Assembly: GCA_018693855.1 (NCBI GenBank)
Contig: JABHMO010000043.1
Coordinates: 4,450-68,449 of the forward strand
Length of the DNA stretch: 64,000 bases
Direction of reading: 5' to 3'
Source of the DNA: Candidatus Falkowbacteria bacterium
GTDB lineage: Bacteria; Patescibacteriota; Patescibacteriia; UBA11705; JABHMO01
Shown here: positions 3,321 through 46,306 of the stretch, in pieces
Position numbering within the stretch: position 1 is the first letter of the stretch
Layout of the letters: each line of letters begins with the position of its first letter
Translations under genes and position numbers: made by a program
The notes under the pieces: generated by a model
What the model was told of the DNA's origin: nothing
Database searches by the model: none
The model's input: only the letters and a program-made list of their open reading frames with translations

Positions 3321-3384
3321 ATTTTTAAAATTGAAAAGACCCGGAGCATGAGAGCTCGGGCCTTGTTGAAGTTAGAAAAAAGAA

Positions 3385-6300
3385 CTAGTCAATTTGAACT
3401 GGTCGACCGCCTTCGACGCAGGCCTCCACAGTGACAGAGACACCGTCAACAGTGCAGACAGGGATCGAGATGGCAGTACAATCATACCATTGTGGGTCAG
3501 GAGGTCCAGGCGCTTGCGCTTGAGATGCGCCGACGAAGACCGTTCGGCCTTGAATCCCCTGAGCATTTACAATTACGGTGAAACAGCCGTCTTGATCCAG
3601 CGGATTGTTCCAGTCGGACGCCCAGCCTCCACTACTCGAGCCCCAACCGAGCTGACCATAATCAGTCGGATTAAGACCACTATAACAGCAGTACACTTCG
3701 TGGAGATCTTCGACGTAGGTTTCACAACCATCACTGGCCGTACCTTGATCTTGATAACCCGGAATACAGGCATCGATTTGGCACTGACCATCAACACATA
3801 ACGTTTGACTGACCTGAGGCAGATTCCCGCAGTTATTCCCGCAAGCACCACAGTTCAGTACGTCATCTTCAAAGTTGGTGTCCTCGTCGACGAAACCATC
3901 GCAGTCATTATCCAGCTCATCGCAGAGTTCATTGCCTCCACGAGTCTGCCAGCAATTGTACTCGCACCCTTCAGTCTCCGGATCGATATTATGCCAACCC
4001 GAGTCACAGGAATACGAGCACTGACTGTTCACACACGACGCTGTAGCGTTGATGCCCGAACAGACGTCACCACAACCGCCACAGTTGTCTGGGTCGATTT
4101 CCAGGTTAAAGTCCTCATCGGTGAGACCGTCGCAATCGTCGTCTTCGCCGTTGCAGAGTTCGGAATCTAGCGGTTCTACCGCATCGAAACAGTCGCCCCA
4201 ATGGTTGCCGACGCATAGCCGCGATCCAGCCAAACAAATACCGATACCGTCTTGAGCGATCGGTCCGCAAGAGTCCGGATCGATCACCCCATTCGGGTTG
4301 CATTCACATCCTTCGTCCACTTGCCCATCGCAATCGTTGTCCAGTCCGTCACACATATTGACTTCGTCCGGTTGGCTATAACTACTACCTCCCGGCATAG
4401 TCGTGCAAACGGTCAAGTTAGACGGAGCGCACTCGATAAGACCATCTTCGCAGACGCCTTTACCTGTACAGGGTGCACCAACGTGAAAACCTTCATCGAT
4501 CTGACCATCGCAGTCATCGTCGGCGTAGTCGCATTTCTCGACAGCACCTGGATTTGCCCACGGAGCCAGATCACGACAGTCGCCATCGCAGACGCGATAG
4601 CCATCTTCATCGTAGTCCGCTTCGTTCTCAGGAACGATACCATCGCAGTCATCGTCCAGCCCGTTGCAGAGTTCCTGCTCCAGACCATTATAAGCGCCGA
4701 TGCACTCGGTCCACTGGTTGTTGACACAACGAATCTCTCCGAGTTCACAGATACCTTCGTCAGTGCCACACGGTAAGATCATGTCGTTTTGACAATTACA
4801 GTCTTCATCGAGTAATCCGTCGCAATCATTATCCAGCCCGTCTCCGAGCCCCTCTCCGCAGAGTTCAATGCTCGAGGGGAAATAGTCACTCCCATCCGGC
4901 AAGACACTGCATTGCCGTTCAGTTTGACTAGCACATTCGATCATGCCTTCGATATCACTGCACACTCCAACGCCCCAACACGGCTGACCGATAGCGTAAT
5001 CTTCGTCGATCGCGCCATCACAGTCGTTATCCAGACTGTCGCAGAGTTCCTGCGTGCCATCGTATTCACTGGCACCGACATCACTGCTACAGCGAATGGT
5101 CTGCGCGTCAGCGCATTCATAAACACCGTTACCGCACTCGCCACGACCGTTACACGGATCACCGATCAGAAAATCCTCGTCGATCTCACCGTCGCAATCA
5201 TCGTCGAGCCCGTTACAGGATTCGATCCCCACTTGCTGGCTACTGCCACCTGGATCAGTGCTGCAACGCGTATCATCGAGGTTTTCACACTCGATCACGC
5301 CTTGTCCGCAGACACCAACACCGTCGCAGATATTGCCAACGAAGTAGTCTTCATCGATTTGTCCATCGCAATCGTTGTCAAGTCCGTCGCAGGTTTCGCT
5401 TTGCCCGTCGTAAGACGAACCCCGCGGACTGGTACTGCAACGAGATCCATTGACTCCGTCGCATTCCCAGACACCGTCGCTACACTGGCCAATGCCAGCG
5501 CAAGCGATCCCCACATTGAAATCCTCATCGACGACGTCATCGCAATCGTTATCCACTCCGTCACAAAGTTCCTGCGTGCCGTCGTAGGACGACCCACCGA
5601 TATCGCTGCTGCAACGAGCGGACTCTGCATCTGCGCATTCGAGAAATCCGACTCCGCATTGTCCGACACCTTCACAGGCATCGCCGACACGGTAGTCTTC
5701 ATCGATCTCGCCGTCACAGTCGTCATCGAATCCATTGCAGAGTTCGTTCTCACTCTGGTCCTGACTGCCACCCGAATCGGTACTGCATCGCGTCGAAATC
5801 GAACTATCACACTCGATCTGACCCGTCCCGCAAGAACCTTCACCGATGCAGCTCACGCCGATATTGAAAATCTCATCGATGCTGCCGTCGCAATCGTTGT
5901 CCAGACCATCGCAAAGCTCGGACGAAGCACTGTAACTGGAACCTTCAGGATTAGTGCTACAACGAGCGCCTCCGAAGTCATTACACTCCCAGACACCGTC
6001 GCTGCACTCCCCGACTCCGTCGCAATGGTTGCCGACATTGAAATCCTCGTCGATCTCACCATCACAATCGTTATCCAGGCCGTCACACGTTTCAGACAAA
6101 CCTTCATAAGACGACCCGTTCTGATCCGTACTGCAACGTGTTTCGGTTTCGCTAGCGCACTCGATGGTTCCAAGTCCGCACTGACCCACACCCTCGCAGG
6201 TGTCGCCGATACGAAAATCCTCGTCAATCTCGCCGTCGCAGTCGTTATCCAGACCATCGCAGAGTTCCTCGGAACTCTCGTCATCAGGGCCACCTGGATA

Positions 6301-7722
6301 CGTATTGCAGGTCGAAGCCGATTCGCTCACACAAACGATCTCACCAGCCGAGCATACACCCAGCTGCGGACAAGAGTCGCCCACATTGAAATCTTCGTCA
6401 GTCAAACCGTCGCAGTCGTTGTCCAGGTTGTCACAAATTTCGGTCTCGGCCTCGTAGGCTGTACCACCGATATCAGTCGAACAGCGCGTGGAATCTTCGT
6501 CCTCGCACTCGAGCACGCCAATCCCGCATTCTCCGACTCCGTCGCAGGACAAGCCCACTCCGAAATCTTCATCTGCTTCACCGTCGCAATCGTCATCGAT
6601 ACCGTTGCAGATCTCTTCACTACTCTGGTCAGCACTGCTGCCTGGCGAAGTGGAGCAAACCCACAATAATTGGTTCTCTGCGCATTCCCAGACTCCCTGT
6701 CCACAAGCACCAACCACCGGACAGGGTTGTCCAATGATCACGCCCGGAAAAATGTTCTGATCAAGTTCATCGATCTCGCCGTCACAGTCGTTGTCCAATC
6801 CGTCGCAAAACTCCAGACGTCCAACATATTGACTGCCAAACGGATCAATATCACAAATACGACCGCCGTTGTCAGTGCATTCCCACTTGCCAACACTGGA
6901 GTTACAGGTACCGAAGGTACCCTGACACGGATAGCCGATCTCAAAGTCCTCATCGATCATGCCGTCACAATCGTTATCCAGATTGTCACAGGTCTCGTCA
7001 GTGGGCAGGATCTCATCGCAATCAGACCAAACACCATCTTCACAGGTCTGTTGACCGCGTTGACATTCGCCTTGTGCATCTTCATCGATACTGCCACAGT
7101 AACGAGCCGTACCATCACTGCATTCGCAATCTTCATCGAACTCGCCGTCACAGTCGTCGTCGTCCATATCGCAGGAGGTTTCACGACCGTACTCATCGAG
7201 ATGCATCTGGTCGATCACGCAAGCATACTCGCAACCCGGAATTTCCGGGTCGTAATCGTACCAGTTATCCATACACTCATACTGACAGGTACCATCGACG
7301 CATGAAACGCTGGAGTGCTCCAGATCTTCACAAGCGCTATTACACGCCCCGCAGTGCTCAACATTGGTACTCAGATTGAAATTCTCGTCAACCTGACCGT
7401 CGCAATCATCATCGAGCCCGTTACAATACTGTTCGAACTCCAACCCCAAACATTGGGATTCGGAGTGATCAACTGCATCGTAATCACCCAGAAGTTCATA
7501 TCGACAGAACTGACCAGCGCCACTCTCGTAGCACAGATAGCCTGCCGGGCATTGAGCTTGCGGTCCGCAAGGGATCACGCACTCACCATAGACACAGACC
7601 CATCCCTGGGCTGTACATGACTGCTCGCAAGGCGAGCTGTTGGAGTTGCTGGACTTGTTCCAGTCACAGCCACTTGTTGACAGAACGGAAGCCAAAAGGA
7701 AACAGAGAATCAGACGTCGCAT
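3385..7722 (-). CDS. Giant secreted lipoprotein with ~20 Cys-rich CDGxDNDCDGxxDE (MopE-type putative metal-binding) repeats; GC-rich
   Basis: ATG at 7722 is preceded by AAGGAGA (SD). The signal peptide MRRLILCFLLASVLSTSGC carries a lipobox. Repeated CDGLDNDCDGxIDEDFxxGxxC..GxC..GxxEC modules follow. GC is ~58% against a ~35% backbone. The + strand ORFs inside it are antisense artefacts. Confidence 0.75.
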   Translation of the reverse strand: MRRLILCFLLASVLSTSGCDWNKSSNSNSSPCEQSCTAQGWVCVYGECVIPCGPQAQCPAGYLCYESGAGQFCRYELLGDYDAVDHSESQCLGLEFEQYCNGLDDDCDGQVDENFNLSTNVEHCGACNSACEDLEHSSVSCVDGTCQYECMDNWYDYDPEIPGCEYACVIDQMHLDEYGRETSCDMDDDDCDGEFDEDCECSDGTARYCGSIDEDAQGECQRGQQTCEDGVWSDCDEILPTDETCDNLDNDCDGMIDEDFEIGYPCQGTFGTCNSSVGKWECTDNGGRICDIDPFGSQYVGRLEFCDGLDNDCDGEIDELDQNIFPGVIIGQPCPVVGACGQGVWECAENQLLWVCSTSPGSSADQSSEEICNGIDDDCDGEADEDFGVGLSCDGVGECGIGVLECEDEDSTRCSTDIGGTAYEAETEICDNLDNDCDGLTDEDFNVGDSCPQLGVCSAGEIVCVSESASTCNTYPGGPDDESSEELCDGLDNDCDGEIDEDFRIGDTCEGVGQCGLGTIECASETETRCSTDQNGSSYEGLSETCDGLDNDCDGEIDEDFNVGNHCDGVGECSDGVWECNDFGGARCSTNPEGSSYSASSELCDGLDNDCDGSIDEIFNIGVSCIGEGSCGTGQIECDSSISTRCSTDSGGSQDQSENELCNGFDDDCDGEIDEDYRVGDACEGVGQCGVGFLECADAESARCSSDIGGSSYDGTQELCDGVDNDCDDVVDEDFNVGIACAGIGQCSDGVWECDGVNGSRCSTSPRGSSYDGQSETCDGLDNDCDGQIDEDYFVGNICDGVGVCGQGVIECENLDDTRCSTDPGGSSQQVGIESCNGLDDDCDGEIDEDFLIGDPCNGRGECGNGVYECADAQTIRCSSDVGASEYDGTQELCDSLDNDCDGAIDEDYAIGQPCWGVGVCSDIEGMIECASQTERQCSVLPDGSDYFPSSIELCGEGLGDGLDNDCDGLLDEDCNCQNDMILPCGTDEGICELGEIRCVNNQWTECIGAYNGLEQELCNGLDDDCDGIVPENEADYDEDGYRVCDGDCRDLAPWANPGAVEKCDYADDDCDGQIDEGFHVGAPCTGKGVCEDGLIECAPSNLTVCTTMPGGSSYSQPDEVNMCDGLDNDCDGQVDEGCECNPNGVIDPDSCGPIAQDGIGICLAGSRLCVGNHWGDCFDAVEPLDSELCNGEDDDCDGLTDEDFNLEIDPDNCGGCGDVCSGINATASCVNSQCSYSCDSGWHNIDPETEGCEYNCWQTRGGNELCDELDNDCDGFVDEDTNFEDDVLNCGACGNNCGNLPQVSQTLCVDGQCQIDACIPGYQDQGTASDGCETYVEDLHEVYCCYSGLNPTDYGQLGWGSSSGGWASDWNNPLDQDGCFTVIVNAQGIQGRTVFVGASQAQAPGPPDPQWYDCTAISIPVCTVDGVSVTVEACVEGGRPVQID

Positions 7723-7954
7723 GGTATTTTCTCCTTGGTTAGACGTCACACAAAAATCAAGATTTTGCCCCGCCATGGCGGGGCTGACAGAATTGTCAAA
7801 GTCCTATGTAGAACATTATAGATTAGCTTATTTTAAGGAAATTGTCAAGGGGAAATCACGAAACGCGGATCGCAGAACTCAGATCGTAAAACTCAAATTG
7901 ACAATTAAAACGGCCAGCAATAAAAAACAGCTAAATTTAGACAATTATTTAAAA

Positions 7955-7990
7955 ACAAAGGACCTGAACAAATGTTCGTTCAGGTCCTTG
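7955..7990. terminator. Bidirectional rho-independent terminator hairpin (AAGGACCTGAAC...GTTCAGGTCCTT)
   Basis: A perfect 12-bp inverted repeat with T-rich tracts on both sides, lying between the 3' end of the 8009-9451 gene and the promoter of the 3385-7722 gene. Confidence 0.55.
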
Positions 7991-8008
7991 TAATTCAGTA
8001 GCAAAAAG

Positions 8009-9451
8009 CTAGAAGCAAGCGTAAGGTACGGTTGCACGACGTTTCGTCGTCCCCTCGAGTCCATCAATGGTGTCAACCGTCACTTCGGGGTTACAGGTCA
8101 CCGTTAGCAACGCGGTGTATGACGTGCTGTTGAAATGGAACTCGTTCGAACTCCAACCACAGACACCTTCGTAACTCAGGAAGAATGCTTGACCGCAGTC
8201 AACTCGAGTTTCGTCACCGTTCCGCCCGCCCCACCAGTAGATGGCTTGCTGTCCTCCCGGACAACCAGAGAACATGCACCATACACCATCAGGGTCATAG
8301 GGCAACTCGTCGACAGCATAGTCTCCGAGATTGTCCTCATCACCATCGGGCTGACTATGGTTGAAACACATGGTCTCATCGCGGTACTCACCGCAACCAT
8401 ACCCACCACAGGACTCGACATGGTAGGTGCAATACCCCAGCTCGCAAACGCCCTCGAGATGGATTAAGCGATCCCGATCGTTCTCGCAGATCACGACGTC
8501 CGCCTGACACCGGTGATTGTCTTGGCACGGACGACAGAAATCCTCACTACACCAACGATATGTATCCTCGGGGCAGAACTGATTGCAGGTTCCTTCGACA
8601 GGCTCCGCATTTGAGCCGTCCAAACAGATCCGCTGCTCTTGCGTGCAAACTATCTCTCCCTCCTCGTCTTCCTGCTCGGTTTCATCGTAACTGTCGAGGT
8701 CGATGTCACCTTCATCGGACTGAACACACTGACCGTCGTAACAGCCTAACATACCGCAATCCTCAAGGTAAAGCTGACAACGGCCGGTTCCGTGCCCCTC
8801 GACATATTCGCATTGAGCGTTGTCGGGGTGGGTAAAAATGCGATCTCCCGACTGGCAATCGGCGATGTTCTCGCACTGCGAATTGGACGTACATGTCCAG
8901 CAATCCGCGATCTGATCATGACGACAAGCGCCGTACGCATCGCAATAGTCGCGAGTGCAAGGATCGAGGTCCGGGTCACAAATACAGACGTTCGGCTCAG
9001 CATCCGGCTCCGATTCGGTAGCGTCCGTGTCGGTATCGCCTTCTTCGCAACGCGAATCATAGACGATATGACACTGCCCCGTGTTACTACAAACTGCAAG
9101 CTGACAGTCTCCAACTTCCAGGTGATCGAGGCAATACTGCGACGTCTCACACGGAATTCCTGTCGCCTGCTCGTTGTCGGACTGCTCAGCCGTATCCACG
9201 GTGTCAGTGTCACCGCCGTAAACGGTGACACACTGATTGCGGATACAAGCCATTCCGTTCCTACACTGCTCGTCATCGGTGCATTCCTGGCTCGGCACAT
9301 CCTGAGTCTCAGTTTCACTGACGCTCTCGGTACGGGGATTTCCCCAGCCGGAATCGTCGGTGTCGCCGGAAAGAGTAGCCGTGCCGTTGCAAGCGGACAC
9401 GAACAGAGTAATGGCGATAATCGCCAGTAACAAGGAATGAATCTTCCTCAT
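8009..9451 (-). CDS. Cys-rich secreted lipoprotein (Myxococcota-type cysteine repeats); GC-rich
   Basis: ATG at 9451 with a GGAGG SD. Signal peptide plus lipobox MRKIHSLLLAIIAITLFVSAC. Repeated CxxxxQCxNGxCxxNQC-like modules. Confidence 0.65.
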   Translation of the reverse strand: MRKIHSLLLAIIAITLFVSACNGTATLSGDTDDSGWGNPRTESVSETETQDVPSQECTDDEQCRNGMACIRNQCVTVYGGDTDTVDTAEQSDNEQATGIPCETSQYCLDHLEVGDCQLAVCSNTGQCHIVYDSRCEEGDTDTDATESEPDAEPNVCICDPDLDPCTRDYCDAYGACRHDQIADCWTCTSNSQCENIADCQSGDRIFTHPDNAQCEYVEGHGTGRCQLYLEDCGMLGCYDGQCVQSDEGDIDLDSYDETEQEDEEGEIVCTQEQRICLDGSNAEPVEGTCNQFCPEDTYRWCSEDFCRPCQDNHRCQADVVICENDRDRLIHLEGVCELGYCTYHVESCGGYGCGEYRDETMCFNHSQPDGDEDNLGDYAVDELPYDPDGVWCMFSGCPGGQQAIYWWGGRNGDETRVDCGQAFFLSYEGVCGWSSNEFHFNSTSYTALLTVTCNPEVTVDTIDGLEGTTKRRATVPYACF

Positions 9452-9518
9452 AGGGGCCTCCATCTTCAAGGGTTTCGGAAATGAAAAGGTACGAAAAATG
9501 ACACTAGGATAACATCTT

Positions 9519-9547
9519 ATTATAGCAAAAAAGACGATCTTTGTCAA
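9519..9547 (-). promoter_or_regulatory. Consensus sigma70-type promoter (TTGACA-17-TATAAT) for the 8009-9451 gene
   Basis: Minus-strand reading gives TTGACAaagatcgtcttttttgcTATAAT with an exact 17-bp spacer. Confidence 0.55.
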
Positions 9548-9553
9548 CCTCTG

Positions 9554-9583
9554 TCACGTATCACTTAACACGTAGCACGTAAC
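9554..9583. repeat. Heptad tandem array (CACGTAR), family R7
   Basis: cacgtatcacttaacacgtagcacgtaac. The same ACGTARC heptads recur at 13443-13468, 19832-19866, 30655-30690 (inverted), 41466-41497, 43403-43440 and 58055-58088, usually just upstream of a -35 element. Confidence 0.7.
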
Positions 9584-9713
9584 AGAACACAAAAATCATT
9601 AATTTAAGCTAAATTTAGACAAAACTTTATAAAATTTATTTAAAATGAAGAGCCCCGAACGATGTTGTTCGGAGCTCGACTGTTGAGGTTGAGAGTTAAA
9701 TCGTAATGACGAC

Positions 9714-10538
9714 CTAATACTGGCAGGTGTAGTTCAGTTCCACATCTTCGAGGCCGTGGCCCTGATAATGCGTTGTGAATCCACCGTCGCACTGAATCGT
9801 CAACTCGTCACCGTGATCCCACACGCTGGGATTGCAACCGGAGACGGATGAACAGTTGACCTGGTTATAGCGGAACCATGCGGTTCCGTATGGGACTTGC
9901 CCCCACGGACAGATGTCCCGACTCAGGTCGAACGTGATCCACTCACCACATTCGTGGTATTCCCCTTCGCTGCCGCCGTTCGTGCCTCCGGAATACCAGA
10001 GCGATACGAGATAGTTGGCGCGACAACCGGTCCAACGACAGGTAATCGTCTCGCCGGTCGGATCTGGGTCGTTGTCGTTGTCGTTGTCCGTGGTGTCGGT
10101 ATCACCGTTGTTCACCGGTTCGCCGATCAATTCGCATTCGCCTTGCATGGCCGCTACGAGATTGTTATCGCCGTCGTAATACGAGTCCACCGTTCGTGTC
10201 GGAACACAGCCCCAATGGCCATCCAACCCGTCAAGCGGTACATAGGAATTGCGGCGACAACTGTCTTCGGAAGAGAGGACGTCCATGAAACGGTTGGTCA
10301 CCGTGCGAATTTCGCACATGTTGGCACAACGTTTCATAGCGTAACCTTCTTCCGCGGATCGTATCTCGTCATTGATGCAAGTCATCGGCTGCGGACATCC
10401 CGCATCGGTGATGCATTGCTGCACCTCCCAATAGTCGATGTTCTGCGTCCCCGTGATCGTGGCATCATCCTGGCAGGCGATGGTGGTCAGAGCGATGGCC
10501 AACACGACCAACGTAACGAACAGATTCCTTTTCTTCAT
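9714..10538 (-). CDS. Cys-rich secreted lipoprotein; GC-rich
   Basis: MKKRNLFVTLVVLAIALTTIAC carries a lipobox. A GAGGAG SD precedes the ATG. 274 aa, Cys-rich. Confidence 0.6.
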   Translation of the reverse strand: MKKRNLFVTLVVLAIALTTIACQDDATITGTQNIDYWEVQQCITDAGCPQPMTCINDEIRSAEEGYAMKRCANMCEIRTVTNRFMDVLSSEDSCRRNSYVPLDGLDGHWGCVPTRTVDSYYDGDNNLVAAMQGECELIGEPVNNGDTDTTDNDNDNDPDPTGETITCRWTGCRANYLVSLWYSGGTNGGSEGEYHECGEWITFDLSRDICPWGQVPYGTAWFRYNQVNCSSVSGCNPSVWDHGDELTIQCDGGFTTHYQGHGLEDVELNYTCQY

Positions 10539-10684
10539 GATTTTTCTCCTCAGGTGAAAAGGTGGTCAATTGTGAAACGAAACAAGTATCCTCATCCGTT
10601 TTATCATAAATTATTTATAATAGAACAGATGAGGAGGGGATGAAAAGCTCCATCCCCACCATTGTGAAAAAAACAGTACTTGAA

Positions 10685-11329
10685 CTACCGATAGTGAACG
10701 TTGCGCTTGCCGTCCAGGTAGCCCATGCCACCGAGAGTGCCCAACGTCGTACCACCAACCACGACCACTCCGATGATCGTCCAGAACCACCAAGTCTCGT
10801 ACCACTCGGTTTTGAGTTCCTCGGTCTGCCGGTCAATGGCATTGGCGACGTTATCGGTTTCCAGAATCACCGACAGGTTGGTGGTGTTGTCGATGTCGAC
10901 ACGATCTCCGCTACGACTGGACGCGCGACGTCTCGGGACTTCGCTCTGAGCCAGTCGATGACGCTGTCGATTCTCGCGATCCATCTGCCGCTCAGCTCGA
11001 TCGATTGCCTTCAACAGCTGGAATTCACGCTGCTTGAGCTGGCGATACTGCTGCAAACGATTAAGCGCCCGGCGAGTCCGATGCTGTCGCTTCATCTCAT
11101 CGATCTGACCTTGTGTAACCGCGATTTCGGTGAGCAACATTTGATGAACCTGCTCAAGAGACATCGGCTGCGCAGCGGCCGGTTGCCGTTGTTGCGCCTG
11201 CGCTCGAGCTGCGTTTCCACCGACGATCACTTCCGAAGCAGTGTTATCATCCGCCATAGAGACGGAGATCAAGACCGGATTCATTGCCATTACCACGCAC
11301 AGCATGGCCAAGATGATGGATTTCATCAT
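10685..11329 (-). CDS. Secreted Gln/Arg-rich coiled-coil protein with a C-terminal TM anchor; GC-rich
   Basis: Signal peptide MMKSIILAMLCVVMA, a long QR-rich helix, and a C-terminal WWFWTIIGVVVVGG TM segment. AAGGAGG SD. Confidence 0.5.
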   Translation of the reverse strand: MMKSIILAMLCVVMAMNPVLISVSMADDNTASEVIVGGNAARAQAQQRQPAAAQPMSLEQVHQMLLTEIAVTQGQIDEMKRQHRTRRALNRLQQYRQLKQREFQLLKAIDRAERQMDRENRQRHRLAQSEVPRRRASSRSGDRVDIDNTTNLSVILETDNVANAIDRQTEELKTEWYETWWFWTIIGVVVVGGTTLGTLGGMGYLDGKRNVHYR

Positions 11330-11487
11330 GTCGTTTTCCTCCTTAACAAGGTATGGGGGTCAATTGAAAAGAAACATACAAATCCTCATCTGATTCATCA
11401 TGAAATACATCATAATAAATCGGATAAGGAGGAGTGGAACGTTGTTCCACTCCATCCTGGTTACATGTTCAGTACCAAATTCTCGAT

Positions 11488-12438
11488 CTACTCACGGCCG
11501 AAGCGGTACGTCTTATCGACGGTGCGAGTCCTTCGGTACACGGTGTGATCATCGCCCTCGTTTTCTTTGTGCTCGGGATCGATGATGTCTTCGACCTCAC
11601 CCTCTTCCTTCATGTACGAACCGGCTTCCGGGTTGTCGACATTAAAATTCACGTTGGACGTGTCGTTCCAATACACGAGCGGAGCCGGTGGCTCATCGTA
11701 GAGTCCTTCGGTGGGCTGCAGGTTTGCGGTCGACTGGGCGGGCTGACGCGGTTGAACCGACGAAATATCCTGGCCGTTACCTTGGCTGGCGGGGACATAG
11801 TAGCTCGGATCCTCCGGCAACTGATTGAGCCGACGCTGGACGAGCAGCTGACGCTGCGCGATCTGCAACTGACGCTGCCTCTGCGCATTCTGAGCTTCCT
11901 GACGCGCGAGCGCGTCATCGGAAACGATGGGAATCGCGACGCCCGGTCGGCCGTGACGTACGACGACAGCACTGGGCTGCTCGGCAGGCTTCTCGGAGTC
12001 GGGCTTGGCGGCTTGCTGATTGCGGTTACCGCCATAAAGACGACTGAGCCGCTTGTAGTTGGCGCGATCGGACATCTGCTGCTGAATAACTTCAAGTCGA
12101 TTCCGCACGGCCTGGACCTCGGGACACGTCAGATCGGTATTCTCCTGCTCGGCCTCATCGGAATAAACCTTGATGAGCCTGAGAGCCTGCAACTTACGCC
12201 GCACGGAGAGCACTTCATTGTCGGTCAACTCGTCCTTCATGGCCTCGATCTGATCCTTGGACATGCGGGGATACATGAGCATCCGCAAATCCTTGATCTC
12301 TTCGGCGTCGAGCGATTCGACACACGAAACGGGATCAGGGTCGATGGGGTCGTAACCGGACTGCGCGGCGGCCGGGGTGGCGGTCAAAAACACGATGGCC
12401 AGCATGGCCAGCAAAAACAGGTTGCGAACTTTCTTCAT
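11488..12438 (-). CDS. Secreted Gln/Arg-rich protein; GC-rich
   Basis: ATG at 12438 with an AAGGAG SD. Signal peptide MKKVRNLFLLAMLAIVFLTATPAAAQ. QRQRQLQIAQRQLLVQRR helix. Confidence 0.5.
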   Translation of the reverse strand: MKKVRNLFLLAMLAIVFLTATPAAAQSGYDPIDPDPVSCVESLDAEEIKDLRMLMYPRMSKDQIEAMKDELTDNEVLSVRRKLQALRLIKVYSDEAEQENTDLTCPEVQAVRNRLEVIQQQMSDRANYKRLSRLYGGNRNQQAAKPDSEKPAEQPSAVVVRHGRPGVAIPIVSDDALARQEAQNAQRQRQLQIAQRQLLVQRRLNQLPEDPSYYVPASQGNGQDISSVQPRQPAQSTANLQPTEGLYDEPPAPLVYWNDTSNVNFNVDNPEAGSYMKEEGEVEDIIDPEHKENEGDDHTVYRRTRTVDKTYRFGRE

Positions 12439-12608
12439 GGCAAATCTCCTTTGTGTTGCCAAGTTAACGAAATACTGAACTGATTGAAAGAGAACATTCT
12501 CCTCACCGGAATAGTTAAATAACTGCTCTGGTGAGGGCACAACGGTGGTTGTGCCTGTTTTCTACATCTTGCGTAAAAAACTAGTTTTTGTCAAGTCCCG
12601 GACACGGA

Positions 12609-13367
12609 TCATCTCGAACAAGATCGCCCGAGTTGTCTCTCCATCGCGCAAAGCCTCTGCTGTTCGCGATGATTATCCAGGTAGGTTTGTCCCAGGTCCT
12701 CTAACGTTGGTCCATGAAGGACTGAACGAGTTCGAGGTTGAGACCTTTGTCGTGGCCGAGTCCGCTGTTTTTCCAGCATGTCGGCGATTGATGGGCCTCG
12801 CAACTTGCGCTGGAGACGCTCGTTATCGGATTCGAGGCGACGTTGTTCGGCTTCCGCTAGATCACGACCCTCTACAGCATCTTCAAGCAATTCCTCCAGT
12901 TCCCTGACTCGCCTTGACAGTCGAGTAACCTCCGTTTGGCTTTCACCTAACTGGATAACCAACTTGCCTGCTCTAGCTGCTTGTCTTTTCAGTTCCTCCA
13001 GGTCAGATGGACCGGCAGCACCAGACAAACCACTTGCATGACTAGCGATCATGCGACGAGCTTTCTCGATCTCCTCTCTTAGTGGAACAACTTCTCTTTC
13101 CAGATCAGAGTATTTCACTTGGAGTTGCTCGAGTGCCTCACTTGAGTCACTCATATCACGAAGCTTTTCTTCAAGCTCCACGATCCGACGACGTAATTTG
13201 GCGTCTGCCTCCTTAATCCTCTCTTGCTCCTCGTCAGTGACGATACCATCTGCCAGAGCCACTTTGACCTCATCAGCCAATTCCGGTTTCTGTGCTGGAT
13301 TTGAAAAGAAAATCCAAACTCCAACAATTCCAGACAAAACAATAAGAAGCGCGATGAAATATTTCAT
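12609..13367 (-). CDS. N-terminally membrane-anchored coiled-coil protein; GC-rich
   Basis: TM segment MKYFIALLIVLSGIVGVWIFF, then ~200 aa of heptad-rich sequence. AAGGAGA SD. Confidence 0.5.
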   Translation of the reverse strand: MKYFIALLIVLSGIVGVWIFFSNPAQKPELADEVKVALADGIVTDEEQERIKEADAKLRRRIVELEEKLRDMSDSSEALEQLQVKYSDLEREVVPLREEIEKARRMIASHASGLSGAAGPSDLEELKRQAARAGKLVIQLGESQTEVTRLSRRVRELEELLEDAVEGRDLAEAEQRRLESDNERLQRKLRGPSIADMLEKQRTRPRQRSQPRTRSVLHGPTLEDLGQTYLDNHREQQRLCAMERQLGRSCSR

Positions 13368-13405
13368 GATCTGTCTCCTTGAGATGATCGAATTAGTAAC
13401 ATACT

Positions 13406-13434
13406 ATTTTATCATGTTAGAAATAATTTGTCAA
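13406..13434 (-). promoter_or_regulatory. Promoter TTGACAAATTATTTC-N-TAAAAT (17-bp spacer) for the 12609-13367 gene
   Basis: The 15-nt -35 region TTGACAAATTATTTC is identical to that of the promoter at 14964-14992. Confidence 0.5.
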
Positions 13435-13548
13435 TAGCGAATCACGTAACACATATCACGCCTACCTATCAACAAGCAATCAACGCATAACAAAATATGA
13501 CAAACAAGACAAAATGGCTAAAATAAGACAAAACCCGCAAGGATGACC

Positions 13549-13929
13549 TCACGGGTTGATGATGTTTTGTAGAAATGTTATTAGGGAAAAGCCAAATTTG
13601 TTTTGGAGACCGGATTGGGCCAATGCGCCAAGGAGAATTGAAGCAAAGATTAACAACACAATTACTCTAGTTGAAGCATCTTTGTATTTAATTACTTCCT
13701 TGACTGCTAATTGCTCCAGTTCTTCTTTGAAATATCGCCTTAAATATGCGATTTTCAGTTCTACCTTCAATTGCTCTATTTTCTTTTGGTGCGCTCTTTT
13801 CTGCAATGCGCTTTTACCTTGCCCATTGCTATCATGGTCTTTGCTCAAAACCACAATTTGAAAAGCTATATCATGCAAATCACCAACAACCAAATCGCCA
13901 TTAATCCCAAGTTCTTCGTAAAGATCCAT
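13549..13929 (-). CDS. Small C-tail-anchored protein (126 aa); lower GC than its neighbours
   Basis: GGAGG SD plus ATG at 13929. C-terminal TM segment VIVLLIFASILLGALA. A perfect 13-bp hairpin (AGAGCCGCGATGC/GCATCGCGGCTCT) at 13955-13985 separates it from the upstream gene. Confidence 0.4.
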   Translation of the reverse strand: MDLYEELGINGDLVVGDLHDIAFQIVVLSKDHDSNGQGKSALQKRAHQKKIEQLKVELKIAYLRRYFKEELEQLAVKEVIKYKDASTRVIVLLIFASILLGALAQSGLQNKFGFSLITFLQNIINP

Positions 13930-14002
13930 GGTTAACCTCCTTGCCAATTTGCAAGAAGAGCCGCGATGCGAGGCATCGCGGCTCTTGTAAATAAAGAATA
14001 AA

Positions 14003-14893
14003 TCAGAACGCTGTTTTGATCCACTGCAACAGACTCACACCCAGTTTCCAGATGGCCAGCTCTTCGAGTGCGAACATGATTACCAGACCTAATCCCGTCA
14101 GCCCCACCCACTCACCGATACTCGTCCGCTGCTTGACCGGCTTCTGGTTCTGAGCCTCGGTCAGATCCCTTTCCAGGTCAGCTATCTGATCACGAGCTTC
14201 ACCCAAATCCTGACGCAATTCGTCCTCAAGCTTGAGCTGGGCTTCGGCTGCTTTTCGCTGAAGCCTTGCGTCTTCTTCAGCCTTACGCTGAGCTTCGACT
14301 TGATCGTCCTCGTCCTTCTTGCGAGCGTCGATCTTGGCCGTTAGTTTGAAATAAAGCTGGTGAACCTGAACACGCGCAAACTTGAGTTGCTTCCCGACCA
14401 AGAGAAGCTTCTGACGTCCGCTCTGTGCATACAGACTGTCAGTCGCGACCAGCTCTTCGAAGATCTCCAACTCATCCTGCGTGGCGACATAGAAGGTAAA
14501 TCCGTCATCGCCATTGGGTGTCTGCTGACCGAAGAAAAGCCGATACAACCAACCTTCAGTAAAAATCTGGAAAGTATGATTTACCTGCAGTGGAAAATGT
14601 TCCTGAGCCGACGACGTCACCTCGGACTGCGCCTGCGCGATAACAGCCTCTTGCTTGGCGACAACCGGAGCTTCCTCACGGGTAGTCGTCACGACGGGCT
14701 CGGTCTCTTCTGGCTTCTCCTCGGGTTCTTCATCGGATTCACCTCCTCCTCCGAAAAGAGCCACCGAATCATCCGTAGTTGGCGGTGCTGCAGTCAACTC
14801 CGAACCATCGCTACCGGCGTCTGCGTCGTGGATGTCTCCACCCATTGCACTCCTACCGTCTTCTGTATCCGTGTCAAAAGGACTTCCAGCCAT
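14003..14893 (-). CDS. Acidic coiled-coil protein with a C-terminal TM anchor; GC-rich
   Basis: 296 aa with a D/E-rich N-terminal region, a KAEEDARLQRKAAEAQLK coiled coil, and a C-terminal TM segment GLTGLGLVIMFALEELAIW. GGGAG SD. Confidence 0.5.
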   Translation of the reverse strand: MAGSPFDTDTEDGRSAMGGDIHDADAGSDGSELTAAPPTTDDSVALFGGGGESDEEPEEKPEETEPVVTTTREEAPVVAKQEAVIAQAQSEVTSSAQEHFPLQVNHTFQIFTEGWLYRLFFGQQTPNGDDGFTFYVATQDELEIFEELVATDSLYAQSGRQKLLLVGKQLKFARVQVHQLYFKLTAKIDARKKDEDDQVEAQRKAEEDARLQRKAAEAQLKLEDELRQDLGEARDQIADLERDLTEAQNQKPVKQRTSIGEWVGLTGLGLVIMFALEELAIWKLGVSLLQWIKTAF

Positions 14894-14963
14894 AGTACTT
14901 CTCCCTTTTCTCCCCTTTTTGGGGTAAGAACGTGAACTTGTGAAACAACAAAACTAACATAAT

Positions 14964-14992
14964 ATGTTATCATATAGGAAATAATTTGTCAA
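14964..14992 (-). promoter_or_regulatory. Promoter TTGACAAATTATTTC-N-TAACAT (17-bp spacer) for the 14003-14893 gene
   Basis: Read on the minus strand. It is the twin of the promoter at 13406-13434. Confidence 0.5.
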
Positions 14993-15096: not shown

Positions 15097-15984
15097 TTAC
15101 CCCATACCGATAAACTTGTCTTCTTCTTCAAATTTAGGGTAATCTTTTTTTGTTGTTTTTTGTGAATCATTGTCAGTTGGGAGTTCTGGTTCATTCATCT
15201 CTTCGATCTCCTGTTCTTCCTCGGAAATCTCCTCAACATCGTCTAAATCTAGCTCAGGAACGTCTGGTGTGTCCCCCATTTCTTCTTCAACACTTTCTGT
15301 TTCTGGAACATTATTATAAGAAACTAACTCAGGTTCCTGATCTTGACTAAACTTGTCATGATCTCTATCTGGTCTGTAAGTTAGAATTACGTATGCAAAT
15401 GATAATATTACACCAACAAATAAACTAACTGCTAAATTTAACGCGATATTTGGTTGTTGTGGATACTGAGAAACTAATGGTGAATCTAATAATTTCAGAT
15501 CAATATCACCAATCCCAATTAAATCGTCCTCTTCATTAATCAACACCTCTGCAACTGTTCTTGAAATTATCAAAGCTTGATTTGAATCTGTGTGATAGAT
15601 TGTGAAATTTAATTTACTGTAACCTGTTGGAACGTAAGCATCAACTGTTTTATCCCAAACTTTTCGACGATCTCGTTCGTCAGATCCAAAATAGGTTCTA
15701 TCAATTGATAAGTTCTCTGATAAAACTTTATCTAGAAAATAACTTGAACTAATAACCTGTGACAACTTTTTTCCAATCTTCTCTTCAGACTTTGTAGCAC
15801 TGTAAGCGTCAATACTAAAACTTGATTTCTGAATAATTAAGACACTTGATTCAGCTGAATATTTAAATGGAGTCACTAAAGTAATACCCAGACCAATCAA
15901 AAATACGATAATTATAACAATTAACGCCTTGTGCCAATTTTTCTTGTACACATTGATATAGTCGATTTCTCGATAATGTTTCAT
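15097..15984 (-). CDS. Polysaccharide co-polymerase (Wzz/Cap5A chain-length determinant)-like protein
   Basis: N-terminal TM, a periplasmic domain, a second TM segment (LAVSLFVGVILSFAYVIL), then an acidic C-terminal tail. AT-rich backbone composition. Confidence 0.45.
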   Translation of the reverse strand: MKHYREIDYINVYKKNWHKALIVIIIVFLIGLGITLVTPFKYSAESSVLIIQKSSFSIDAYSATKSEEKIGKKLSQVISSSYFLDKVLSENLSIDRTYFGSDERDRRKVWDKTVDAYVPTGYSKLNFTIYHTDSNQALIISRTVAEVLINEEDDLIGIGDIDLKLLDSPLVSQYPQQPNIALNLAVSLFVGVILSFAYVILTYRPDRDHDKFSQDQEPELVSYNNVPETESVEEEMGDTPDVPELDLDDVEEISEEEQEIEEMNEPELPTDNDSQKTTKKDYPKFEEEDKFIGMG

Positions 15985-23316: not shown

Positions 23317-23559
23317 TCAAGTGGATGAATCCAGCTCGAAATAGGCAGCTGAGATTTCTTGATTTGTGCCATCCACTCGTTCAAGAACGAGAAATTGATG
23401 GTGCCCGACCATGGCCGTTTGATCTTCAGGCACAGCTTTCACGTCGAGAACTCGACATGGACCGCCCCCAAACGTAGCATAGACAGCTGCGTGCAAAGGG
23501 TCTTGATATTTCTTCTTGAAAACCACTTTATCACCAACCTTGAAAGTTTGTTTCGCCAT
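23317..23559 (-). CDS. Small GC-enriched hypothetical protein (80 aa)
   Basis: MAKQTFKVGDKVVFKKKYQDPLHAAVYATFGGGPCRVLDV.... A TTGACA-17-TATACT promoter lies at 23606-23634 on the minus strand. GC is ~47%. Confidence 0.4.
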   Translation of the reverse strand: MAKQTFKVGDKVVFKKKYQDPLHAAVYATFGGGPCRVLDVKAVPEDQTAMVGHHQFLVLERVDGTNQEISAAYFELDSST

Positions 23560-42452: not shown

Positions 42453-42707
42453 TCAGGCGCGCCCCTGACCTCGTCCCATATTATGGAACTTCTGAAGTGA
42501 CAGTTGCTTCAGTCGACCGAGATCACCTCGACGACTTTGCGTGATTGTTTTTTTCCTAGGACCATCTACTAAAACGACTTTGAGACCACCTTGACTCCCA
42601 CTCGGTCCACAAGGACAGACGTTTAGTTCTTCACCAGGATGCAGGAATTCAGCCATTTCCCGGAGAAAGGTTTCCTCTTCGGAAGTCAATTGGATCGGTG
42701 TCGGCAT
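42453..42707 (-). CDS. Small GC-rich hypothetical protein (84 aa)
   Basis: AAGGAG SD plus ATG at 42707. A TTGACG-17-TATACT promoter lies at 42788-42816 on the minus strand. GC is ~50%. Internal CPCGPSGSQGG motif. Confidence 0.4.
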   Translation of the reverse strand: MPTPIQLTSEEETFLREMAEFLHPGEELNVCPCGPSGSQGGLKVVLVDGPRKKTITQSRRGDLGRLKQLSLQKFHNMGRGQGRA

Positions 42708-46120: not shown

Positions 46121-46306
46121 CTACTGTTCGTAGTATGCATCCATCGCTTGGCGCATTTGATCATTGCTGGACTCACCAGGTGTGCTTATACCACAATCAG
46201 CATTCGCACAAACAGTAACGGTTCCCATACCGGGCTCGCCCTCGGGAAAGGTCGTCTGCGACATCTTGCCACAGTTCGGGCACTCAACAAATTGTATCTC
46301 CGCCAT
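46121..46306 (-). CDS. Small GC-rich zinc-ribbon protein (61 aa)
   Basis: MAEIQFVECPNCGK...VCANADCG. AGAGGAG SD plus ATG at 46306. A TTGACA-17-TATGAT promoter lies at 46351-46379 on the minus strand. GC is ~50%. Confidence 0.45.
   Translation of the reverse strand: MAEIQFVECPNCGKMSQTTFPEGEPGMGTVTVCANADCGISTPGESSNDQMRQAMDAYYEQ

Follow-up and report, generated by a model that had tools for sequence, protein, structure and literature searches.

Genes of the island and its flanks

The window, by which we mean the whole 64,000-nucleotide stretch analysed, contains an island of eight minus-strand genes, numbered I1 to I8 from position 3385 to position 14893 (~11.5 kb); its genome (W) was compared with related lineages R1, R2, R3, R4 and R5. 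I1 (3385..7722, −) encodes a 1445-aa lipoprotein (lipobox ...STSGC) preceded by the Shine-Dalgarno (SD) sequence AAGGAG; an alternative ATG upstream at 7776 has no SD. About 20 CxxDxDCDGxxDE (MopE-type) motifs, some in 174-nt tandem modules, were found in the protein, and the MopE-type Cys repeats of the original prediction were borne out by Pfam (PF11617 MopE, 17 stretches, E = 4e-77). The TIGR02232 match considered alongside was not obtained: I1 matched zero NCBIfam families, TIGR02232 included, and none of the solved structures was related to it by sequence. Orthologues were 69% (R1), 39% (R2) and 37% (R4) identical; beyond two orthologues the best match was a Falkowbacteria protein, and further matches came in mixed order from Falkowbacteria, Uhrbacteria, Patescibacteria, Planctomycetota and Myxococcota. 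I1 thus resembles other MopE-motif proteins (Myxococcota, Bradymonadia and many CPR) in its significant PF11617 stretches and 'Notch-like' multi-module build, but it is a CPR lipoprotein whose nearest non-orthologue is from Falkowbacteria.

I2 (8009..9451, −) and I3 (9714..10538, −) encode cysteine-rich lipoproteins of 480 aa (acidic, lipobox FVSAC) and 274 aa (lipobox TTIAC), respectively. The C-terminal domain of I2 is conserved (C..F..C..W..CG..C.W..F..N), and the C-terminal region of I3 is similar to that of I2. For I2, P0022 is an orthologue and P0025 and P0024 are distant relatives, and nothing in Pfam scored above cut-off. The I3 orthologue, I3', lies at L026:604-1464 (a word-indexed search recovered I3 alone), and the AlphaFold model of I3 had a pLDDT of 36. 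I4 (10685..11329, −; 214 aa, SD AAGGAGG) has both a signal peptide and a C-terminal TM segment, as well as a coiled coil rich in Q/R; it matched no family in Pfam or NCBIfam. I5 (11488..12438, −) encodes a 316-aa Q/R-rich secreted protein whose R1 orthologue is 51% identical, and I6 (12609..13367, −) a coiled-coil protein of 252 aa that is anchored in the membrane by its N-terminus and for which Pfam, PADLOC and PHROGs returned coiled-coil noise only.

I7 (13549..13929, −; 126 aa, SD AAGGAGG) has a C-terminal TM segment; a TTG start upstream at 13947 is unlikely. Its R1 orthologue is 64% identical, and the positional counterpart in R2 opens with a zinc-ribbon-like CxxC...CxxC. I8 (14003..14893, −; 296 aa) is acidic and disordered at its N-terminus and also has a coiled coil and, C-terminally, a TM segment; the R2 gene at this position, ~20% identical to I8, opens with a double zinc ribbon (weak match to Pfam DZR). 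Lipoboxes, signal peptides and TM segments were read off the sequence rather than taken from a topology predictor. The sole hydrophobic segment of both I7 and I8 is C-terminal, which suggests tail-anchored proteins; of the eight secreted or lipoprotein genes originally proposed, the number therefore stands but the description does not extend to all of them. Searches for relatives of I2–I8 outside the clade found none.

Upstream of the island lies an AT-rich, SD-less Wzz-like gene (15097..15984, −; two TM segments, sub-threshold Pfam Wzz and GNVR matches), and downstream an AT-rich, SD-less Wzy_C/O-antigen-ligase-like gene (1771..3153, −; PF04932, E = 2.5e-13).

Regulatory elements and single-gene cassettes

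Predicted promoters of the consensus type TTGACA-N17-TG-n-TAnnnT were found 5' of I8 (12/12), I6 (11/12), I2 (10/12 to 12/12) and I1, as had been claimed for the island at large; I5 has a weaker predicted promoter, and I7, I4 and I3 have none of their own and are read as operonic from this arrangement. The promoter of the I8–I7 unit (14964..14992, −; TTGACAAATTAT...TGATAACAT) is conserved in R1 and has CGCG/ACG repeats upstream (14998-15020), and that of I6 (13406..13434, −; TTGACAAATTAT...TGATAAAAT, 11/12) is preceded by ACGTG repeats (13437-13461). The promoter-like site of I5 (12566..12594, −) reads TTGACA-N17-CAAGAT, and its R1 equivalent TTGACA...TAATAT. The I2 promoter (9519..9547, −; TTGACA-N17-TGCTATAAT, 10/12 to 12/12) lies near an ACGTG repeat array (9553-9583) and a CTAAATTTAG box (9609-9618), which recur in R1 and R3, with a variant box GCTAAAATTAG in R2; the I1 promoter (7820..7848, −) likewise has upstream repeats (7853-7891) and a CTAAATTTAG box (7931-7940), and a hairpin lies in the I1 5'-UTR (7767-7786). 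A hairpin with a T-run forms a terminator 3' of I1 (3338..3362, −), with analogous terminators after I2 (7958-7989), I3 (9650-9677) and I7 (13532-13557). A two-hairpin intercistronic RNA element (stem CCTCATCCGA...TCAGATGAGG) occurs between I4 and I3 (10590..10657, −) and in a second copy between I5 and I4 (11384-11453); RNAalifold, applied to five copies drawn from W, R1 and R3, gave 27 pairs and showed compensatory changes in 10. Elements in the spacers are thus conserved across lineages.

The original prediction held that nothing similar occurs elsewhere in the window, which proved incorrect: five single-gene cassettes follow the island design of promoter, SD, GC-richer CDS and terminator. 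Cassette A (23317..23559, −) encodes 80 aa within a patch of higher GC and has a promoter and a terminator; cassette B (42453..42707, −; GC 0.50, SD AAGGAG) encodes 84 aa and likewise has both; cassette C (46121..46306, −) encodes a 61-aa zinc-ribbon-like protein, its promoter being TTGACAGATTAT and its SD AGAGGAG; cassette F (58793..58969, −) is a 58-aa gene with SD GAAGGAG, promoter, upstream CTAAAATTAG box and terminator; and cassette E (61839..62315, +) a 158-aa single gene with a TTGACAAATTAT promoter, SD TAGGAGGTG, GC3 0.71 and terminator. Exact TTGACAAATTAT occurs three times, at I6, I8 and cassette E, and eight matches were found with one mismatch against 1.4 expected.

This anatomy recalls phage morons (Hendrix/Juhala), which are reportedly autonomous promoter-gene-terminator units of deviant composition: each island unit has a sigma-70 promoter and an intrinsic terminator to itself and differs from its neighbours in GC content, with single-gene versions scattered in the window. 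An integrated mobile element, be it a defence island or what remains of a moron-carrying prophage, would account for this unit structure. However, the units lie in the chromosome amid housekeeping genes, an integrase, a tRNA target and flanking repeats were looked for at the island and none was found, in agreement with the original prediction, PHROGs and PADLOC yielded coiled-coil noise only, no relatives or phage homologues were found in the viral contigs searched, and the position is fixed in deeply diverged lineages (see below). We regard a mobile element as highly improbable.

Assembly, base composition and inheritance

The possibility of a chimera, raised in the original prediction, in which foreign GC-rich DNA had been joined to a CPR contig in assembly or binning, draws on several irregularities. 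The NCBI MAG contig JABHTE010000063.1 stops about 140 nt inside the island, island fragments were binned in a 'Bathyarchaeota' MAG, the left junction (3154-3384) is a frequent break at which short contigs stop, so that it is seen in two long contigs only, and the low-coverage contig L015 departs from the window at 15077, 20 nt past the Wzz-like stop codon. Against this, the right junction is crossed by at least eight independent contigs (L009-L014, L016, L017) from different assemblers at 99.98–100% identity, and the whole structure is present in two long contigs (144 and 147.6 kb). The second of these (147,599 bp, an NCBI MAG with locus tags HN958_ and proteins named Candidatus Falkowbacteria (CPR/Patescibacteria)) carries the island (HN958_03875-03905) and backbone proteins together. 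The arrangement also recurs in four further lineages, and the island spacers share promoter type and boxes with the rest of the window. We regard a chimera as refuted.

The island has 51.8% GC overall, and its pooled CDSs 53.5%, against 35.9% for the window without it, which upholds the claim of GC-rich CDSs in an AT-rich (~35%) backbone; the ~58% given originally was too high, as only I5, the island maximum, reaches 58.5%. Single genes range from 0.50 to 0.585, with the exception of I7 (0.38), and their GC3 from 0.37 to 0.72 (backbone CDSs 0.19–0.35, about 0.25–0.30). Spacers within the island were, as predicted, AT-rich (32–46% GC), and the GC step is sharp, falling within about 30–60 nt of start and stop codons. 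Amino-acid use shifts between the rest of the window and the island from 6.6% to 1.7% for K and from 3.2% to 4.7% for R. The deviation, when followed gene by gene as originally suggested, extends to GC3 and to codon choice, and the latter runs against the ribosomal-protein optimum: translation genes prefer NNC (0.42 vs 0.28), NNA and A/T-ending four-fold codons, whereas island genes favour NNG (0.60) and avoid A-ending four-fold codons (0.12). Because these choices oppose the translation-gene preferences, tRNA adaptation is unlikely, and GC itself, not the ribosomal-protein codon optimum, seems to be favoured in the island.

The original prediction saw a Myxococcota/Bdellovibrionota flavour in the proteins and what looked like an insertion splitting a polysaccharide locus. 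As a recent event such a transfer is not supported: the position of the cluster is shared even by lineages with HtrA proteins only 39–70% identical, and its conservation in four further lineages argues against recent transfer. The Wzz-like gene always adjoins the cluster (R1, R2, R4, R5), the order AI-2E, DUF5656, HtrA, Wzz-like gene, cluster is common to R1, R2, R4 and R5, and the downstream set of R4 (contig L037; Wzy_C-MT-GT4-GT4-GHL15) is that of the window, so W and R4 share both flanks. Between W and R1, pS was 0.67–0.74 in the backbone and 0.53–0.85 in the island (pN/pS roughly 0.25–0.65), a near-saturation judged pairwise, with four-fold identity about 0.1–0.25 above a hand-estimated chance level rather than from a fitted non-stationary model. 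GC3 values remain nearly equal (W/R1: I1.54/.58, I2.60/.64, I3.68/.66, I5.72/.67, I6.43/.45, I8.57/.56). The I1 similarity order is R1 > R2 > R4 > R5, and the backbone likewise puts R1, then R2, first. From the shared site, the near-equal GC3 at near-saturation and the I1 ranking that follows the backbone, we conclude that the cluster is, very probably, real, native and inherited and not an insertion. Since GC3 is kept at near-saturated synonymous divergence, the composition is probably actively maintained rather than a residue of transfer; the idea of unusual compositional selection on a long-domesticated locus, also raised originally, is the one that the evidence favours.

The cluster shares with Lawrence-Ochman-type HGT islands a sharp deviation in GC and codon usage over ~11.5 kb and lineage-restricted genes for surface proteins. 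It differs from them in lacking mobility genes, tRNA and flanking repeats, in its same site in five lineages, in a similarity ranking that agrees with the backbone, and in a coding-only deviation that survives near-saturated synonymous divergence. An ancient transfer from a GC-rich donor such as Myxococcota, with lineage-specific amelioration and later recruitment of AT-rich promoters, would fit the abundance of MopE-repeat proteins in Myxococcota and Bradymonadia; SD sites could have arrived with the foreign genes, and island GC3 values from.31–.43 (R2) to.77–.92 (R3) could resemble stages of decay. However, the cluster predates the split of lineages with 39–48% identical HtrA, and per-gene GC3 is almost unchanged between W and R1; by a rough estimate, neutral decay needs an ancestral GC3 above 1 for I3, I4 and I5. 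The closest non-orthologous match of I1, from Falkowbacteria, the mixture of CPR and non-CPR phyla among its wider matches, the missing outside relatives of I2–I8 and the absence of any NCBIfam match, TIGR02232 included, also count against it, as does R5, in which the pattern of GC-rich CDSs and AT-rich spacers is genome-wide. Ancient transfer is therefore quite unlikely, and a very ancient one would leave the present composition unexplained.

Unlikely too, though less so, is GC-biased gene conversion at a recombination hot spot, with purifying selection keeping regulatory spacers AT-rich. Recombination is most frequent at surface-protein loci and in small accessory cassettes, where a conversion bias would raise GC at every codon position; the bias is towards GC and not tRNA-optimal codons, amino-acid use is shifted as well (K down, R up), and the persistence of AT-rich spacers among the GC-rich CDSs of R5 makes sharp CDS edges compatible with a regional force. 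Yet the GC step falls within 30–60 nt of start and stop codons even beside poorly conserved parts of spacers, and the population in the samples read is clonal: apart from single mismatches in two of them, the island/right-flank contigs are 100% identical, with no sign of recombination. In addition, the I1 ranking is congruent with the backbone, and the I1 repeats (families D1–D5) are only 60–89% identical, so recent homogenisation is absent.

The Shine-Dalgarno split and a proposed explanation

An SD precedes all eight island genes, 6–9 nt 5' of ATG (listed as AAGGAG, GGAGG, GAGGAG, AAGGAGG, AAGGAG, AAGGAG, AAGGAGG and GGGAG), and essentially none of the ~40 backbone genes in the window, confirming the predicted division between island and housekeeping genes. 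In each lineage checked, all cluster genes had an SD and backbone genes did not. GC contrast varied: island GC3 was about.42–.59 in the called genes of R4 (higher in low-complexity stretches of L037) and.54–.78 in R5, where the contrast is absent (backbone GC3.58–.75) and spacers are AT-rich (GC 0.18–0.38) though CDSs are GC-rich genome-wide. The SD split is thus the invariant trait, and the GC contrast is lineage-dependent and confined to coding sequence.

The best overall explanation, which we consider probable, is an old, vertically inherited envelope/surface cluster of a Falkowbacteria-like CPR family whose composition is maintained. Its genes would form about four transcription units (I8–I7; I6–I5–I4–I3; I2; I1), each driven by a predicted host sigma-70-type extended -10 promoter and closed by a putative hairpin terminator; ACGTG/CGCG 8-nt repeats and a CTAAAWTTAG palindrome would accompany the promoters, and within the I6–I5–I4–I3 unit a further promoter would precede I5 and structured hairpins would lie between cistrons. 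The cluster genes may represent a second gene class, distinguished from the SD-less housekeeping genes by strong-SD translation and, in several lineages, by CDSs apparently kept far GC-richer than the backbone. A force favouring GC itself would maintain the contrast, and our preferred guess is that selection acts on the mRNA, so that abundant envelope proteins are made from transcripts that are stable or structured and last long. This idea leaves the choice of this gene class unaccounted for. As to the products, I8 and I7 (C-terminal TM) would probably face the cytoplasm, I6 would be a bitopic coiled-coil protein, I5 and I4 exported Q/R-rich proteins, and I3, I2 and I1 cysteine-rich lipoproteins, I1 with MopE repeats; together they would build a membrane-anchored surface structure that, if real, could serve host attachment or envelope architecture. 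Both the mRNA-level mechanism and this function are tentative, the latter being read from sequence features with the MopE motif as the sole homology.

In the SD-poor genomes of Flavobacteriia/Bacteroidota, which have a few SD-led genes, bS21 occludes the anti-SD together with adjacent proteins. W is similar in that most genes lack an SD, a defined minority has a strong one, and SD-like motifs are avoided within genes, implying an intact anti-SD. Here the phylum is CPR, and the genes led by an SD stand apart in composition too and encode envelope and small orphan proteins. SD-like motifs were avoided inside the backbone CDSs of the window (GGAG, z = -5.3; AGGAG, z = -4.2), by which an active, presumably intact anti-SD is implied. 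An anti-SD motif was found in only 48% of Parcubacteria, and those in which it is missing are for the most part also those that lack uL1 (Tsurumaki et al., 2022; PMC9297842); uL1 (rplA) is present in the window genome.

Composition, assembly and site of the cluster

Base composition averaged over 500–1000 nt rises from a GC fraction of 0.32–0.35 to 0.50–0.60 at about position 3400 and falls back at about 15000. Between these steps lie eight minus-strand genes (the island, 3385–14893; numbered from I1 at the low-coordinate end to I8 at the high-coordinate end), with a GC content of 51.8% as a block and 53.5% for the pooled coding sequences, against 35.9% for the remaining window (the backbone), which encodes gyrB, L11, L1, NusG, RodA, MacB and HlyD-like products as well as tmRNA and tRNA-Asp. 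Per-gene GC is 0.50–0.585 and GC3 0.43–0.72, apart from I7 (GC 0.38); over all eight genes GC3 is 0.37–0.72, compared with ~0.25–0.31 in backbone and flanking genes. The original prediction put the island at about 58% GC; the step is real, but that figure is true of I5 alone. Its description of AT-rich spacers inside the GC-rich island was accurate (32–46% GC against the coding value), and the switch between the two is confined to ~30–60 nt around start and stop codons. Long antisense ORFs (302–585 aa) run across the GC-rich genes at 10640–11548(+), 4912–6669(+) and 11434–12483(+), one of which (302 aa) has been annotated as a gene by JGI; the antisense ORFs through the island are most likely artefacts of GC-rich, stop-codon-poor sequence.

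A sharp deviation in GC and codon usage is the standard signature of horizontal gene transfer (HGT), and binning programs discard contigs as contaminants by it. The island deviates in both composition and codon usage, as a horizontally acquired island does. An assembly chimera, one of the options raised originally, was ruled out. Looked up as exact proteins, the products of the island genes and of the adjoining Wzz-like gene turned up on many independent contigs from SPAdes, MEGAHIT, JGI and other assemblers (99.98–100% identical to the window), at least eight of which cross the right junction (14894–15096). The left junction (3154–3384) is spanned by two long contigs only, of 144 and 147.6 kb, which hold both junctions; contigs L018 and L019–L023 stop at or before 3365, and a look-up of the Wzy_C protein gave no match. 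The 147,599-bp NCBI contig (Candidatus Falkowbacteria bacterium) carries island proteins HN958_03875–03905 together with the window's L1 and HtrA. Two low-coverage contigs (1.7x and 2.3x) depart from the window into unrelated AT-rich DNA: L015 (1784–1905) at 15077, 20 nt past the stop codon of the Wzz-like gene, and L018 (1–596) at 2769. These are misjoins or rare structural variants, possibly one without the island. The Falkowbacteria MAG contig JABHTE010000063.1 ends ~140 nt inside the island, at the GC step, and fragments of I2, I6 and I8 have been deposited in a 'Bathyarchaeota' MAG (HN588_; MBT7913856.1, MBT7913777.1 and MBT7913779.1). We conclude that this break and these misfiled fragments are fragmentation and contamination arising from composition-based binning.

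A full HMMER search with I2 identified its orthologue (P0022) on a 90-kb contig of a related lineage, R1, whose DNA is represented in contigs L031 and L026. There, AI-2E, a 141-aa protein, DUF5656, HtrA and the Wzz-like gene are followed by eight cluster genes with products of 295, 126, 262, 296, 212, 286, 561 and 1463 aa; the downstream flank is rearranged and contains a transposase. Three further lineages were located through relatives of HtrA: R2 (L033; HtrA 47% identical), R4 (L037 and L039, an NCBI Falkowbacteria MAG; 39%) and R5 (L040, an NCBI 'Parcubacteria group' MAG, GCA_043797615.1, JAZDPK010000048.1; 44%). In all three, a cluster of cysteine-rich lipoprotein and coiled-coil genes immediately follows HtrA and the Wzz-like gene. 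Lineage R3 (L028) is represented by a fragment with equivalents of I3-I2-I1 only. Downstream of the R4 cluster, a radical SAM gene is followed by Wzy_C, a methyltransferase, GT4, GT4 and GHL15. Since this is the window's own downstream set, the site between the Wzz-like gene and Wzy_C is ancestral and not an insertion that split a polysaccharide locus, as had been proposed. The synteny comparison suggested originally thus placed the cluster at the same site in R1, R2, R4 and R5; no empty site was found among these relatives, L015 being ambiguous. A scan of the genome collection with HtrA returned only two distant non-CPR matches, and a metagenome scan with an I2 family alignment a single contig (L030, identical to L027) that was already known. 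A word-indexed search with I3 returned I3 alone and missed its true orthologue; 'orphan' is accordingly used here for lineage-restricted.

Inheritance of the cluster and probable maintenance of its composition

Between the window's lineage (W) and R1, backbone orthologues are 48–89% identical (pS 0.67–0.74) and island orthologues 39–70% (pS 0.53–0.85). In the island pN lies well below pS, as expected of genuine genes held by purifying selection, and synonymous divergence there is near-saturated and equal to that of the backbone. The cluster is older than the much deeper R2, R4 and R5 splits. By similarity rank, I1 of W is closest to R1, then R2, R4 and R5, and R1 followed by R2 likewise heads the rankings for HtrA, the Wzz-like protein and DUF5656. 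This parallel speaks against a GC-rich relative having supplied replacement genes, and transfer from an R5-like family member was rejected, W's I1 being least similar to that of R5. Given occupation of the same site across lineages and the congruent ranking, recent HGT was rejected. The Myxococcota/Bdellovibrionota flavour of the products was right as to the MopE repeats of I1 and misleading as to a Myxococcota donor: after the two orthologues, the best match of I1 is a Falkowbacteria protein, and further matches come in mixed order from Falkowbacteria, Patescibacteria, Uhrbacteria, Planctomycetota, Myxococcota and Bradymonadia, so the motif is no sign of such a donor. Homology and metagenome searches found no relatives of I2–I8 outside the clade.

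A mobile element was likewise rejected. As had been noticed from the sequence, the island lacks the usual marks of one: no integrase or transposase family was detected among the eight products (Pfam, NCBIfam), and no tRNA target, boundary repeat or flanking repeat at the island, the nearest tRNA being at 23113. Phage morons share with the island units their own promoter and terminator and a deviant composition, but they lie in prophages or phages, whereas the island's neighbours are gyrB, rplK/A, nusG, infC, smpB and rodA. The island had no PHROG relatives beyond coiled-coil noise, viral-contig scans with the I2 family and with cassette E (a single-gene unit described below) found no relatives, and PADLOC and PDB searches with the island proteins gave nothing or coiled-coil noise. 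We conclude that the cluster is a conserved envelope gene cluster belonging to a class of genes led by Shine-Dalgarno (SD) sequences. An HGT-type signature here marks an old, inherited locus, so that systematic errors are possible wherever transfer or contamination is called in CPR genomes. The searchable literature (accessions, Falkowbacteria, CPR SD, cysteine-rich CPR lipoproteins) contained no description of this locus or of the gene-class dichotomy considered below.

Per-gene GC3 is nearly identical between W and R1. The island and backbone ranges are.42–.74 and.25–.35 in R1, about.42–.59 (higher in low-complexity stretches) and.23–.32 in R4, and.31–.43 and.20–.35 in R2; the R3 cluster fragment reaches.77–.92. 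In R5 the contrast is absent (.54–.78 and.58–.75): the backbone itself is GC-rich and the spacers have a GC of.18–.38, so that at least one member of the family has GC-rich coding sequence in AT-rich regulatory DNA throughout its genome. Judged by the amino-acid composition of HtrA, GC content appears to vary widely within the family. Identity at four-fold sites between W and R1 (conserved sites) exceeds hand-estimated chance by ~0.1–0.25. By a rough hand calculation, neutral relaxation towards backbone GC3 predicts that the excess has roughly halved in each lineage since the W–R1 split; for I3, I4 and I5 neutral decay would require, on the same rough reckoning, an ancestral GC3 above 1. The GC-rich coding composition persists in several lineages against genome drift.

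Adaptation to the tRNA pool was rejected. In the comparison with translation genes proposed originally, the island deviates from them and runs opposite to them outside NNC codons. In the window's translation and transcription genes, translational selection has left a weak trace of the normal kind: NNC is raised (0.42 vs 0.28), and the preferred codons are NNA and, at four-fold sites, those ending in A or T. The island shares their NNC preference, but its NNG is 0.60 and its A-ending four-fold codons 0.12, and its amino-acid use is tilted to GC-rich codons (K 1.7% vs 6.6% in the backbone). These shifts show a bias for GC itself, not for the best-decoded codons of the organism. A separate observation concerns a 3395-aa backbone protein (31189–41376(-); FG-GAP and DUF11, D-rich DNDNDGLIDYPADPGC repeats), which has a GC3 of 0.21 and no SD; acidic, repeat-rich surface proteins evidently need no GC-rich coding here.

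That leaves two candidate forces: GC-biased gene conversion, or selection that acts on genes of this class at the mRNA or DNA level. The sharp coding-sequence edges do not decide between them, because the AT-rich spacers of R5 persist under a genome-wide GC-favouring force. Gene conversion would keep GC high through recombination, but the population is clonal with no sign of recombination, and the repeats of I1 have diverged with no trace of it. A synonymous-shuffle k-mer test of the island coding sequences gave no strong signal of avoided motifs (nuclease or promoter-like sites). We weakly prefer selection at the mRNA level. Whether selection or biased gene conversion maintains bacterial GC content is an open question, on which a contrast limited to coding sequences, persisting through near-saturating divergence and opposing both mutational drift and tRNA-preferred codons, bears as a natural within-genome control.

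Translation signals, spacer elements and single-gene units

All eight island genes carry an SD 6–9 nt upstream of the ATG. When genes were mapped crudely across the entire window, the motif preceded ~1 of 40 backbone genes, compared with 8 of 8 cluster genes and 4–5 of the single-gene units described below, which upheld the contrast originally drawn between island and housekeeping genes. The same split recurs in R1, R2, R4 and R5; in all lineages each cluster gene has an AAGGAG- or GGAGG-type SD and the adjoining backbone genes have none. W and its relatives share with the SD-poor regime of Flavobacteriia the trait that most genes are SD-less and a minority strongly SD-led. In that regime, 16S rRNA keeps the CCUCC anti-SD, which is occluded by bS21/bS18/bS6, and SD-led genes are regulated through it. 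The 64-kb window contains no rRNA. SD-like motifs are depleted in the SD-less backbone coding sequences relative to synonymous shuffles (GGAG, z = -5.3; AGGAG, z = -4.2); the anti-SD of the ribosome is therefore probably functional and use of the SD sites likely. The closest published finding is a report that only about half of Parcubacteria have a detected anti-SD motif (Tsurumaki 2022, PMC9297842).

Extended -10 consensus promoters are predicted before I8, I6, I2 and I1, and a weaker one before I5. I7, I4 and I3 are preceded by hairpins without promoters, which suggests about four transcription units. Spacers are AT-rich in all lineages (GC 0.26–0.46) and follow a common order: terminator hairpin, CTAAAWTTAG box, short ACGTG/CGCG repeats, TTGACA...TGnTAnnnT promoter and SD. 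The near-palindromic box has seven matches at five window sites (7931–7940, 9609–9618, 20434–20443, 59068–59077 and 62390–62399), against 0.49 expected, always between a terminator and the next promoter of this type, and is kept in R1–R3; it may be an operator. An intercistronic RNA element of two hairpins (10590–10657 and 11384–11453; L026:431–603, L031:8485–8640, L028:308–461) occurs in two copies per genome, with compensatory changes in 10 of 27 pairs. At the base of its second stem (CCTCATCCGA/TCAGATGAGG), one strand is anti-SD-like and the strand it pairs with is SD-like. Elsewhere, intergenic DNA 5' of backbone genes contains short-repeat arrays with a 10-bp period (3238–3327 and ~52450–52560; L026:8064–8557), with units CGATTYACYT in the window and GATTAACYTG in R1, and similar A/C-rich leaders with an 8-nt period (AACCAATAAACC...) lie immediately 5' of several start codons.

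The statement that nothing similar occurs elsewhere in the window did not survive. Five single small orphan genes of island design (cassettes) lie at 23317–23559(-), 42453–42707(-), 46121–46306(-), 58793–58969(-) and 61839–62315(+), each with a TTGACA...TGnTAnnnT promoter, an SD, a GC-richer coding sequence and a hairpin terminator. Codon usage in these genes is biased as in the island, none has a significant Pfam match, and one lies directly 3' of rplK-rplA. In R2, small SD-led, self-promoted genes likewise stand beside SD-less housekeeping genes. The 11.5-kb block is therefore the largest member of a gene class and not a one-off.

CPR organisms have very few ribosomes, and the consistent separation of SD-led from SD-less genes in a CPR lineage points to some additional control at the level of translation. 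It is conceivable, if on balance doubtful, that this CPR family runs two expression regimes in each small genome, with the GC-rich, SD-led class as a separately controlled regulon that owes nothing to HGT. Housekeeping genes would form the SD-less regime. The other, a set of envelope genes and small orphan genes that is fixed and inherited, would be SD-led, self-promoted and self-terminated, and held at high GC (GC3 up to 0.9) by a force specific to coding sequence against AT drift and tRNA-optimal codons. Such a regime could work through structured mRNAs with very long lifetimes or through translation tied to the anti-SD state of the ribosome. If true, this two-regime reading would describe a new kind of stable, HGT-independent compositional dichotomy between gene classes in a bacterial genome.

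Cluster products and other features of the window

The Pfam search proposed for I1 returned PF11617 (Cu-binding_MopE) at 254.5 bits (cut-off 27) with 17 significant stretches. The companion expectation of a TIGR02232 match failed: an NCBIfam scan of I1 and I2 gave no family at E <= 0.1 (release 20.0, assumed to include TIGR02232). Signal peptides of I1–I3, read by eye, end in a lipobox cysteine (...STSGC, ...FVSAC and ...TTIAC), which is kept in the orthologues, and cysteine makes up 5–7% of these proteins; by signal peptide and lipobox they are predicted lipoproteins. Neither Lgt nor Lsp is encoded in the 64-kb window; R5 carries an LGT-domain gene (L040:3386–4198). I2 and I3 have a common C-terminal domain that is kept in distant relatives; AlphaFold2 without an alignment gave a pLDDT of 36 for I3. 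I4 and I5 each combine a cleavable signal peptide with Q/R-rich coiled-coil sequence, I6 has an N-terminal anchor, and the sole TM segment of I7 and of I8 is C-terminal. The positional counterparts of I7 and I8 in R2 start with zinc ribbons, which suggests that the N-termini of I7 and I8 probably face the cytoplasm. The island lies amid envelope-polysaccharide genes, and its products together look like a membrane-spanning scaffold that would display cysteine-rich lipoproteins on the surface. Such lipoproteins are candidate components of the surface by which an uncultured episymbiont contacts its host.

At 60327–63131, rplJ-rplL do not come next after rplK-rplA; cassette E takes that position, and beyond it lies a 169-aa ORF (62622–63131) resembling, by eye, a RibD-C/DHFR-type reductase. 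Between rodA and a divergent gene, the non-coding DNA at 52400–52700 is GC-rich (0.54) and can form several strong hairpins; it had no Rfam match at the gathering threshold and could be a small RNA. The tmRNA lies at 21117–21509(+), with tag ANTLSSKVKSLFAMPSFAPVAV, and tRNA-Asp(GTC) at 23113–23189(-), with its own consensus promoter at 23219–23247.
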